This document shows positions 916 to 4,476 of a DNA stretch of 64,000 nucleotides, piece after piece. The first letter of the stretch is position 1. Every line of letters starts with the position of its first letter. This stretch comes from Roseibacillus sp. Its GTDB lineage: Bacteria; Verrucomicrobiota; Verrucomicrobiia; Verrucomicrobiales; Akkermansiaceae. The notes under the pieces were generated by a model, which ran no database searches, was not told the origin of the DNA, and worked only from the letters and a program-made list of their open reading frames with translations. Location of the stretch: contig CBDEUM010000029.1 in the NCBI GenBank assembly GCA_965242925.1, forward strand, positions 1 through 64,000, written 5' to 3'. The position numbers and the translations under genes were made by a program.

Positions 916-3900
916 ATGAGGGTTTTCAAGACAACACCGGCGCTTTTCACCGGGATTGTTCCAGCCGTCTTGTTCCTCATCCTCGTCGGTTGCAAACGTT
1001 CCGGGGAGGAAGAACTGCTCGAGACTGGGACGGAGGGCACGGCGGCCTTGATCCCACTGGCTGGGCGAGAGAAGGCGACGGCCCGGCTTCTCGATCCGGC
1101 AGAAGGTGGCTGGGAGATGGAGGTGTTCGCGGCTCAGGCCGAGGCGCAACTGGCTCGCCTGGCATCTTTGCTCTCCGGAGAGTCAAGTGCATGGAGCGAT
1201 CTTGGCGAACTGGTTGCAGAGGATGTCCTCACGGAGTTCGTGGATCCCGATGCCGGTGAGACCGTCTTCGAATCCGACGACGTTCGGGTGGCCCGCGGGG
1301 CTGAGAGTGCGACTGCCTCGCAAGCGAACTCTCGCAGCGGCCTTGCTTCCTGCGAAGACGCACTGAAGCGTCTGCAGGCCAATCTGCGCACGGAGCAGAA
1401 CAATCCGGTGGTCAAGGTTTCGTTGAAATTGATTGCAACAAATCCTCACGAAGATGGCACGGTCCGGACGACGATTCTCTATCATGCGAAGACTCGCTCC
1501 GCATCGGGACGCGACCAGATTCGAGCCCGCTGGAATTGCGATTGGTTGTGGGCGGAGGCATCGAGTCCACCGCTGATTCGACACTTCAAGGCAAGTGATT
1601 TCGAATCAGTTCAAAGTAAGAGCCCGCGTGTCTGGTTCTCCGATTGCACTCAAGCCGCCTTCGGGAAGAACCCTTCCTTCGGAAGTGAAATGGGGTTCGG
1701 AATGCACCATTGGCTCCAACGCGTTGGCCGGGTCCACGGGATGCTCTACTTTCAACGTCACGGAATCGCGGTAGGCGATGCCAATGGCGATGGGCTGGAT
1801 GACGTCTACGTCTGCCAGCCCGCAGGATTGCCCAACAAGCTCTTCCTTCATCAGCCGGACGGCTCGGCGCGTGATGCTTCCGCGGAGCTTGGGGTCGATT
1901 GGCTCGACAACACGGCGAGCGCGCTTTTTGTCGATCTGGACAACGACGGGGATCAGGATCTTGTCCTGGCCACCTTCGAAGGAACCCAGGTGCTGGAGAA
2001 TAACCCCGGAAGGGGTTTTCGTCCCGTTGCGAGGCTGGCTTCGGCGGACTACGATTTGCATGCGCTCTCTGCTGCGGACTACGACAACGACGGGGATCTT
2101 GATTTGTATGTCACAGTGGATTTTGCCCTGAACCCGAAGCGCCCCTTTCTCTATCACGATGCCAACGACGGCGGGCGCAATCAGCTCTTCCGCAACGACG
2201 GTGCCTGGAGATTCGTCGATGCAACCGAGGAGGCGGGACTTGGATTGAACAACGCGCGGCACAGCCTGGCGGCGGCCTGGGAGGACTACGACAACGATGG
2301 TGATCAGGACCTCTACATCGCAAACGACTATGGGAAGAACTGTCTCTACCGGAATGATGGCGGCAGGTTTTCCGAAATCGCAGAGAGAGCGGGAGCGGTC
2401 GATTACGGATCCGGCATGTCAGTGAGCTGGGCCGACTACGACCGGGACGGATGGATGGATCTCTATGTAGGCAATATGTTCTCCTCCGCGGGCAGTCGCA
2501 TCACGTCCCAGGAGAACTTCCTGACGAAAACCGGGCAGCCGGTCCGGTCGCTCTATCGCCGCTTTGTCCGCGGCAACAGCTGTTTTCGCAATGAGCAAGA
2601 TGGGACCTTTTCCGAAATGAGCGAAAAGAGCGGGGCCATGGTGGCGGGCTGGGCATGGAGTTCCGTTTTCACGGACCTCGATAACGATGGCTGGGAAGAT
2701 CTCTTTGTCGCCAACGGTTATATCACGACTCCGGATACCGGAGATTTGTGAAGTTTTTTCTGGCGACAGGTCGGGTCGTCAAGTGGGGTCTCGCTGGGAG
2801 GAGGTCTCGGAAGCGCAGCGGAGTCCTTTCTCGAGGTCGTCAAGCAGGGCCGCAGTTTCAGTGCGCGCGAAAGGCATCATTGCTTTCTCAATTTGCGGGA
2901 CGGATCGTTTTGCGATGTCTCGGCTGTTTCCGGACTGGATCTGCCCGACGACGGCCGCGGCGTTGCGCGGGCCGACTGGGATCGTGACGGGGATATCGAT
3001 TTCTTCGTTTCCAACCGCTCGGCGCCGCGGCTGCGGTTTTTCCGGAATGACCTCCCGGGGAGGAACGGCTTCATCGCCATCCGGCTCGAAGGAACGGTCG
3101 GCAATCGCGATGCGATCGGAGCCCGGGTCAACGTCCACCGGGGCGGGGAGGAGGATGTCCCCCTCGCCAAAACCCTTCGCGCCGGAGACGGATTCCTTTC
3201 CCAATCGTCCAAGTGGCTTCACTTCGGGCTGGGCGACCACCCCGGCCCGGTGACGGTGGAAGTGCGCTGGCCGGACGGATCCAGGGAGAGCTTTCCGGAT
3301 CTCGGCGGCAACGCATTCTATCGGCTCCGGGAGACAAGTGGCCGGGCCGAAGTCGTCCAGGTCGGGCGGGCCACACCCGCGAAACCTCTCTCGCCCGGTC
3401 CGGTCGTCCTGCCTGCTCCCTCCGGGTCTGCCAGGACTGTTTGTCTGAGCCGGATTCCACTCCCCGCCATCGATTCCCTGCCGCTCGACACCGGCAAACC
3501 GCTACTCGTGACCCTATGGGCGAGCTGGTGTGCGCCCTGTGTAACCGAACTGAAGGAGTTCGCAGAGAGGGAGGCCGAACTGCGCGCCACAGGTTGTGAC
3601 GTGATCGCCATTTCGGTCGACCCCATCACTCCGGGCGGGGACGAGGCGGCCGCTACACGGATTCTGCGCAAACTGGATTTCCCGTTTCGAAGGGGCTCCG
3701 CCAGCGAGGCAAGCATCGAAAAACTGCAGATGGTTCACGATCTCCAGTTCGATATTTTCACTGAGCTCCCTCTGCCCGCGAGTTTCCTGCTCGATCAGGA
3801 CGGCAAACTGGCCGTTTTCTACCGGGGCCGGCTTGAGGTTGCGACCCTTCTCCGCGATCTCCGGGAACTTGGTGCGGACGATGCGGCGCGCAGGAATTCC

Positions 3901-4476
3901 GCTGAGCTATTCGACGGGCAGTGGTTCGCGCCGCCGCGCCGCCTGAACTTTTTCCCGATCGGGTTGAAATTGTTGCAGCGTGGCTATGATCGGGAAGGGA
4001 TCGCCTACTACGAGCGTCACAAGTCATCATTTGCCGGACATCCGCAGTTCCAGAGGATGCTCGTTTTCCTGGGAGATGCCGCCAACCGCCTGGGCGACGG
4101 GAAGCGCGCTTTGATTGCTTATGAGGAGGCGATTGGCCGCTCGGCCGGCAAGGACAGCGCAGCCCTGCGGGGCGCGGCCTGGGTTCTGGCAGCCGATCCG
4201 AACTCGTCTCTTCGCGACGGCCACCGCGCAGTGGCCTATGCAGAGTCCGCCAGGAAACAAACGGGTGGAAAGGACGCAGCCGTCCTGGATGCCCTCGCCG
4301 CTGCATACGCCGAAATGGGAGACTTTTCTGCGGCAATCTCGAATGTAGAGGCCGCGCTCACGCTGCTGGGAGACAGAGGCGAGGCGCCTCGGGTGGAAAG
4401 CGTCAAGGCTCGCCGCAACCTCTATCTGAAGAAAAGGGCATTTCGGCGAGCCCCTCACGATGGCCACCTCGAATGA
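916..4476 (+). CDS. FG-GAP repeat / ASPIC-UnbV / TlpA-like redoxin / TPR lipoprotein with in-frame TGA at 2749-2751 (candidate selenoprotein, 1186 aa)
   Basis: ORFs 916-2751 and 2893-4476 are in the same frame and the 47 codons between them are open (SFFWRQV...GRSFSARERHHCFLN). Lipobox LVGC; repeated DxDxDGxxDL motifs; ASPIC/UnbV motif (NRDAIGARV...GDGFLSQS..LHFGLG); WASWCAPC redoxin motif; C-terminal TPR-like helices. Confidence 0.8.
2752..2788 (+). promoter_or_regulatory. Candidate bacterial SECIS element
   Basis: 9 nt after the TGA: stem TGGCGAC (2761-2767) / GTCGTCA (2775-2781), 7 bp with one G-U, and apical AGGTCGG. The E. coli fdhF SECIS apex is GCAGGUCUGC at a similar distance from its UGA. 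Confidence 0.65.

Follow-up and report, generated by a model that had tools for sequence, protein, structure and literature searches.

Gene organization and layout of the hairpin

The DNA analyzed here is a stretch of 64,000 nucleotides (nt) from a Roseibacillus sp. assembly (GCA_965242925.1, contig CBDEUM010000029.1), and this whole stretch is referred to below as the window. One of its genes contains an in-frame UGA codon (2749-2751), directly downstream of which an RNA hairpin is encoded within the coding region. This work concerns the hairpin and its probable role in the insertion of selenocysteine (Sec) at the UGA. A plain list of open reading frames (ORFs) cuts the gene into two ORFs, 916-2751 and 2893-4476, which lie in the same frame, and this frame is terminated by an ordinary TGA stop at 4474-4476. 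The coordinates of the features are collected in Table 1.

A domain scan of the product detected FG-GAP_3 (7e-43), UnbV_ASPIC (2.6e-16, residues 733-800), AhpC-TSA (1e-11, residues 859-966) and TPR repeats. FG-GAP repeats followed by UnbV_ASPIC constitute the CRTAC1-like FG-GAP/UnbV_ASPIC architecture, which is thus present in the product, and no NCBIfam model scored above its cut-off for this protein. The N-terminus, when the translation was inspected by eye, reads as a putative lipoprotein signal (LILVGC, residues 21-26).

Table 1. Features of the predicted selenoprotein gene and of the hairpin behind its internal UGA.
Feature	Position	Strand	Description
Predicted selenoprotein gene	916..4476	+	1186 codons, single internal TGA; FG-GAP, UnbV_ASPIC, AhpC/TSA-type thioredoxin-like, TPR
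UGA predicted to be read as Sec (residue 612)	2749..2751	+	TGA conserved in homologues; tRNA-Sec, SelB and SelD present in the genome
Spacer of 9 nt, AGUUUUUUC (clade version)	2752..2760	+	11 nt (2752-2762) to the stem common to the whole family
5' arm, UGGCGAC	2761..2767	+	Trp and Arg codons and first base of Gln codon
Apical loop, AGGUCGG	2768..2774	+	GGUC at 2769-2772
3' arm, GUCGUCA	2775..2781	+	Last base of Gly codon and Ser codons UCG and UCA
Core of 17 nt matching the family element GCGRCA-GGUCG-UGUCGC	2763..2779	+	Offsets 14-30 from the U of the UGA
CAPC motif (Cys872-Cys875) of the fused thioredoxin-like domain	3529..3540	+	Retained or lost along with the Sec codon

The hairpin occupies positions 2761-2781 and contains seven pairs (U-A, G-C, G.U, C-G, G-C, A-U and C-G). 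The first-pass annotation had described a UGA, 9 nt and then UGGCGAC-AGGUCGG-GUCGUCA, with the loop beginning 16 nt after the UGA, and this description agrees exactly with the sequence. Between the UGA and the loop lie 16 nt in the window, compared with 17 nt for the majority of the gene family. In the clade to which the window belongs, the replacement of Val by Gly at codon +8 (GUG to GGG) opens pair 19-25 (numbered by offset from the U of the UGA), and the loop becomes AGGUCGG. In the window and its closest orthologues, the two additional pairs U12-A32 and G13-C31 lengthen the stem at its base, and a G.U pair stands at 14-30. The stems of two further Gly-bearing members comprise just 5 base pairs (bp), with energies of -7.2 and -7.6 kcal/mol.

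Conservation of the TGA codon in the gene family

A stretch of 281 residues around the site was used as a query against 61 related genomes, the window's own included. Matches were found in 35 of the 61, and each listed match that spanned the site had exactly one TGA; the two listed matches without a TGA were fragments starting past the site. The genome of the window itself harbored 13 TGA sites, and the fetched loci of relatives contributed 28 more, all of them in the aligned column. Metagenomes were scanned with the codon-degenerate pattern D-L-[TGA/TGC/TGT]-S-x-x-W-R-Q-V-[V/G], which matched at least 121 stretches. Among the metagenome loci listed, 79 of 80 had a TGA with open frames on both sides, and the lone TGC match was a non-homologue.

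Cys homologues were sought by a mirror scan for DLCSx[FYL]WR[QTH]V in one genome per species, and only 9 were found. The search for the Sargasso Sea selenoproteome demanded at least two Cys-containing homologues for each candidate (PMC1088965). Because very few Cys homologues exist and such a number of them was demanded, searches based on Sec/Cys pairs would be expected to miss this family.

The hairpin in TGA-bearing homologues

The hairpin was compared in 129 distinct TGA-bearing sequences, of which 35 were from relatives, 74 from metagenomes and 20 from Acidobacteriota. The 6-bp stem formed by offsets 14-19 and 25-30 was complete in 106 of these sequences and had at least 5 bp in 120. The minimum free energy (MFE) was -8 kcal/mol or lower in 119 sequences, and the loop was GGUCG in 115. 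The family majority, UGA-AGY-UUY-UWY-UGG-CGR-CAG-GUC-GUG-UCG-C, folds as GCGRCA / GGUCG / UGUCGC, with the stem 11 nt past the UGA, and the UGA-to-stem distance was ungapped in the 105 sequences that were aligned. Since the pattern used on the metagenomes reached no further than offset 25, it imposed nothing on offsets 26-30 in the 3' arm.

In the 105-sequence alignment, 93.8% of the cells were paired, compared with 91.2 ± 0.3% in shuffles and at most 65% in slid registers. The covariation score was 0.145 versus 0.092 ± 0.007, and none of 500 shuffles equaled it, although the aligned sequences are kin, so that such counts are not probabilities. The informative pair was 17-27, formed by base 3 of the Arg codon and base 1 of codon +9. 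All six standard types occurred at this pair (G.U 55, A-U 48, C-G 13, U.G 3, G-C 3 and U-A 2), and 3 of the 5 non-pairs belonged to a subfamily with a shifted register. When codon +9 was Ser UCG, the Arg codon was CGR; opposite Ala GCN it was CGC or CGU in 16 of 18 cases, opposite Pro CCG it was CGG (3 of 3), and opposite Thr ACG it was CGU (2 of 2). Pair 15-29 was altered on both sides in one member, in which AGU stood opposite GCU.

Hairpins were also formed in subfamilies with a different peptide. The W-R-T-V-V-R subfamily had GCGCAC-GGUC-GUGCGC, and the W-R-Q-V-L-P subfamily had CGGCAG-GUC-CUGCCG. In the W-R-H-V-V-A subfamily, a 7-bp stem was closed by a GUN triloop.

Synonymous variation was analyzed in 34 relatives no more than 90% identical at the DNA level, over 101 conserved degenerate codon columns. 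The median normalized codon entropy was 0.85, and codons +6 to +9 had values of 0, 0.10, 0 and 0.08. The sole other column with an entropy below 0.15 was Ala at -18 (in V-A-N-G, at about 2695-2697 of the window), which was GCC in 24 of 24 relatives. Codon choice was similarly narrow in 77 distinct metagenome sequences: Gln was encoded by CAG in 76, the two Val residues by GUC and GUG in 74 each, and Ser by UCG in 66 of the 67 Ser codons. The flanking Asp and Phe codons and the Ser codon at +11 varied freely in the same sequences.

Sense-codon homologues as a control

Homologues with a sense codon in place of the TGA served as a control. Among those in the protein database that keep DLxSFFWRQVV (119 aligned), the Sec position was occupied by S in 35, A in 26, N in 18, Q in 15, G in 9 and C in 4. 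Full-length sense-codon homologues keep this motif; therefore, the peptide is conserved for protein reasons. At the DNA level, the control set consisted of 37 distinct sequences, namely 9 Cys homologues, 24 Terriglobales orthologues and 4 others.

The stem was complete in only 2 of the 37 sense-codon homologues and had at least 5 pairs in 5 of them. Only 55.4% of the cells were paired, and the covariation score was equaled by 206 of 500 shuffles. The first Val codon was GUG in 16, GUC in 10, GUU in 7 and GUA in 3 sequences, so that GUC was used in 10 of 37 sense-codon versus 119 of 129 TGA-bearing genes. Arg codons of the AGR type occurred four times in the sense-codon set and not once in the 129 TGA-bearing sequences. 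The share of synonymous recodings that folded at least as well as the natural sequence had a median of 0.087 in 32 Sec sequences, as opposed to 0.6 in 9 Cys sequences.

The first-pass annotation had asked whether the hairpin is conserved in TGA-bearing homologues, whether covariation of the stem and suppressed synonymous variation are confined to them, and whether the hairpin is equally present in sense-codon homologues. The comparison with homologues, including sense-codon ones that keep the same peptide, came out in favor of the element on these points. It had also claimed that the codons for W-R-Q-V-G-S-S double as an RNA element. The double role was supported, and the G-S-S part proved to be specific to the clade of the window, most of the family having W-R-Q-V-V-S.

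An intact or nearly intact hairpin was found in a few sense-codon genes, namely L064/L194 (Cys, TGC), L209 (Glu, GAG) and L201 (Ser, TCG). In these genes, the UGA was probably replaced recently. Ser at codon +1 was considered as a Sec-specific context and rejected, since AGY was present in 127 of 129 TGA-bearing and in 36 of 37 sense-codon sequences.

Sec-decoding machinery and other hairpins of the genome

Genes for Sec decoding were found in the genome of the window. The tRNA-Sec scored 59 bits, and ARAGORN called it SeC with anticodon tca. SelB scored 287.5 bits (cut-off 242.25) and contained the domains GTP_EFTU, SelB beta-barrel, SelB-wing_2 and SelB-wing_3. SelD scored 366.6 bits, and one TGA was located within selD itself. 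SelA, which was not found in the 89.9%-complete assembly of the window, passed its cut-off in 18 of 19 congeneric genomes.

Hairpins were also found behind the UGA codons of two other genes of this genome. In an fdhA-like gene (…DNCSRA-U-HAPTVAGL…; G000:C22:63568, + strand), the UGA is followed by GUCGCC-GGUCU-GGCGGC, with GGUC at offset 21. In selD (L017:1531, + strand), it is followed by CGCGCA-GGUCC-UGCGCG, with GGUC at offset 35. Three unrelated genes, the gene of the window included, therefore have a perfect G+C-rich stem with a GGUCN loop after the UGA. As in the family, the stems of the fdhA-like and selD hairpins are perfect and comprise 6 bp; their sequences are unrelated to that of the family, and the selD hairpin lies 15 nt farther from the UGA. 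A crude scan of the genome for a stop codon followed by a GGUC-loop hairpin was noisy (47 TGA, 15 TAG and 5 TAA matches) and was used solely to pick the fdhA-like gene and family members.

Comparison with the fdhF element and with published data

In fdhF of Escherichia coli, the GU of the loop and a bulged U of the stem are contacts of SelB. The resemblance to fdhF claimed in the first-pass annotation was checked on NC_000913.3, where the UGA is followed by 11 nt and then by GGUUGCAGGUCUGCACC (GGUUGC-AGGUCU-GCACC), and the comparison was confirmed: GGUC begins at offset 21 in fdhF and at offset 20 in the window. Like fdhF, the family has a stem in the coding region 11 nt after the UGA, with a 17-nt core at offsets 14-30; the stem of the window is longer by 2 bp and starts after 9 nt. 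The motif CAGGUCNUG is common to the family hairpin, the selD hairpin and E. coli fdhF, and GGUC lies in the apical loop. The loop is GGUCG (5 nt) in the family and AGGUCGG (7 nt) in the clade of the window, as opposed to AGGUCU in fdhF. The GU is 1 nt nearer the UGA than in fdhF, and a lower helix including the UGA was not seen here. The designation "fdhF-like" held for the geometry, to within 1 nt, and not for the bulged U, and contact of the hairpin with SelB is predicted.

The UGA-to-apical-loop distance of bacterial SECIS (selenocysteine insertion sequence) elements is given as 16-37 nt in a published account (PMC10778597), and the spacing of 16-17 nt found here is at the lower edge of this range. 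Members of the same domain family are present in Table S9 of Kim et al. 2016 (PMC4807772), where the candidates are each annotated as two genes split at the TGA and where bSECISearch reported a SECIS in 3 of 4 rows. These entries are candidates in a supplementary table only, given without conservation, covariation or a sense-codon control, and the passages of the main text that were consulted are silent about them. A search of the literature, limited to main texts, for selenoproteins with UnbV, FG-GAP or CRTAC1 returned nothing relevant. Non-Sec CRTAC1-like FG-GAP/UnbV_ASPIC proteins, such as the Terriglobales orthologues, have the same architecture and the conserved DLxSFFWRQVV, but they carry S, A, N, Q or G (rarely C) in place of Sec and lack the hairpin. 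The hairpin is very probably an ordinary bacterial SECIS, and the large selenoprotein family of exported bacterial proteins in which it occurs is barely documented.

Function of the hairpin

It is very likely, judging from the sequence comparisons, that the hairpin is a bacterial SECIS that directs the insertion of Sec at UGA 2749-2751 and that is encoded by the choice of codons for a conserved peptide. The direct observations are the presence of the hairpin at a constant spacing behind the UGA, its conservation and covariation, and its deterioration in genes whose UGA was replaced; from them, we infer binding of SelB and actual insertion of Sec. With UGA 2749-2751 in the ribosomal A site, the RNA from approximately 11 nt downstream would be free to fold. 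SelB in complex with GTP and Sec-tRNA(Sec) would then bind the GGUC-containing apical loop via its C-terminal winged-helix domain, and Sec would be delivered in competition with release factor 2. The element would be made of codon choices within S-F-F-W-R-Q-V-V/G-S. Because these choices lie inside a peptide conserved for protein reasons, RNA and protein constraints overlap.

When a segment of 27 nt is folded, the MFE structure is the hairpin (-9.0 kcal/mol), and only 3.3% of 300 synonymous recodings of the same peptide (-5.6 ± 1.8 kcal/mol) folded as well. Several other results weigh against the assignment as a SECIS. In the longer segment 2740-2810 (71 nt), another fold has the MFE, with the hairpin appearing as the centroid (-9 kcal/mol); of 200 dinucleotide shuffles, 115 folded at least as well (z = 0.34). 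Folding stability was accordingly rejected as proof of function, this test not being significant. The window hairpin alone is only weakly beyond chance, and the case is carried by the comparison of homologues, for which the kinship of the sequences has already been pointed out. An Rfam scan of 2400-3100 with E values up to 10 yielded no SECIS family, only two chance-level matches elsewhere. The bulged U of the fdhF stem (the extra U in GGUUGC/GCACC) is without a counterpart, the stems of the window and of the family consensus being perfect. An MFE of -8 kcal/mol or lower was still reached by 7 of the 37 sense-codon homologues, and SelA was not found with TIGR00474 and PF03841 in the assembly, which is 89.9% complete. 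Finally, RNAalifold applied to the 105 sequences returned not the hairpin but a weak pairing (-3.4 kcal/mol) of the Asp-Leu codons with AGGUC, and when 6 nt upstream were included, the MFE structure of 48 nt showed the hairpin in only 54 of 105 sequences, compared with 93 of 105 for the downstream RNA alone.

Among the other explanations, the one that fares best is that the hairpin is under selection but acts independently of SelB, for example through ribosome pausing, hindrance of release factor 2 or mRNA stability. The comparative data would fit this explanation in that they reveal selection on the pairing and the loop and not the binding partner. It is nevertheless improbable. The GGUC loop and the fixed spacing of 11 nt recur in E. 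coli fdhF and behind the UGA of two unrelated selenoprotein genes of the same genome (in selD at the distance given above); genes in which the UGA was replaced show a decayed hairpin; and SelB of this genome carries winged-helix domains.

Still less probable is that the functional structure is the pairing proposed by RNAalifold, in which GAYUUGU (the Asp-Leu codons and the U of the UGA) would pair with RCAGGUC and mask the loop, as in a regulatory switch. In the window, this fold would join 2743-2749 to 2766-2772 and exclude the SECIS hairpin. Besides the RNAalifold consensus, it is favored by the 51 of 105 sequences whose 48-nt MFE structure lacks the hairpin and by the Leu codon before the UGA, for which TGA-bearing genes use UUG in 82 of 118 Leu cases and sense-codon homologues mostly CUG or CUC. 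However, the fold is weak, the hairpin having -7.9 kcal/mol when evaluated on the same alignment, and its variation is all one-sided. It is not kept in the W-R-T-V-V-R subfamily, whose hairpin persists with GGUC at offset 20, and the difference in Leu codons is confounded with taxon. In addition, going by the ribosome footprint, the upstream arm sits inside the ribosome during decoding of the UGA, and the alternative fold was ranked low for this reason.

It is highly unlikely that the nucleotide conservation reflects only a conserved peptide and codon bias without any RNA function. SFFWRQVV is indeed kept in the sense-codon homologues too, which fixes part of the sequence, but with this same peptide they vary freely at synonymous sites and pair at little more than half of the cells. 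Covariation between the wobble base of the Arg codon and the codon facing it is confined to TGA-bearing genes, and the high median entropy of the other conserved codons of the same genes likewise speaks against a general bias. Equally implausible is a true stop, a recent pseudogene break or a genome-wide reassignment of TGA. The plain ORF list does show two ORFs, but every listed match that spans the site, like 79 metagenome loci, has one TGA in this column, flanked by open frames; the gene itself terminates at a TGA, and the genome has dedicated components of a Sec machinery (tRNA-Sec, SelB and SelD).

If the hairpin is taken as a SECIS, it is the evidence that converts a split gene into a selenoprotein gene. 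Gene callers split such genes into two, and with the hairpin, 13 loci of this genome, together with most homologues listed from related genomes, can each be read as one selenoprotein gene of approximately 800-1500 codons. With its nearly invariant sequence and constant spacing from the UGA, the 17-nt element provides a simple handle for finding these genes and annotating them correctly. The overlap of RNA and protein constraints in this family is, moreover, a clean example from nature, for which decayed versions are available for comparison.

Sec and the CxxC motif of the fused domain

The fate of the Sec codon was compared with that of the CxxC motif in the fused thioredoxin-like domain. The motif was present in all 45 TGA-bearing loci of other genomes with a thioredoxin (Trx) hit; among the paralogues in the genome of the window, 9 of 10 loci had it, and it was lost in 86 of 88 homologues with S, A, N, Q or G and a Trx hit. 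This joint retention and loss points to a redox relay between Sec and CxxC. The SECIS also coincides with particular amino acids: among the 129 TGA-bearing genes, Ser (UCG) occupied codon +9 in 101 cases, and C was the first base of the following codon in 101 cases. Sense-codon orthologues favor Ala or Gly at +9, followed by Lys or Asn.

A wider interpretation, to which we give an even chance, joins these points. The SECIS would also dictate amino acids and would mark a very large paralogous expansion of exported selenoproteins, in which Sec works with the CxxC of the fused domain and Cys is almost never acceptable, and loss of Sec would lead to loss of both CxxC and the hairpin.

Additional observations

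The column of the Leu codon at 2746-2748 contained UUG 82, UUA 11 and CUG 3 in the 118 TGA-bearing Leu cases; in the sense-codon homologues, it contained CUG 17 and CUC 10 of 33, a difference that is taxon-confounded. Another conserved Leu of the same genes (-21) was encoded by CUN only. The preference for UUG may be a context effect of Sec decoding or may represent the upstream arm of the alternative fold.

The residue in place of Sec differs even between closely related Terriglobales orthologues (G, A, S or N), and this position looks unconstrained where Sec is gone. Three Bryobacterales genomes carry TGA-bearing and Cys paralogues together. The sense-codon gene L201 (Ser, TCG) also retains CxxC.

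Among the paralogues in the genome of the window, one (G000:C37:896, - strand) has 3 stops in the 281-codon frame and lies close to the end of its contig, which may indicate a pseudogene or an assembly problem. Two copies (G000:C12:51079 and C17:49805) are identical over the 63 nt compared, which suggests a recent duplication or assembly redundancy. Right behind the SECIS, a second stem-loop of 9 bp (GGGGUCUCG ... AGGUCUCGG-like) is located at 2784-2809, and it was found only in the window and its closest orthologues.

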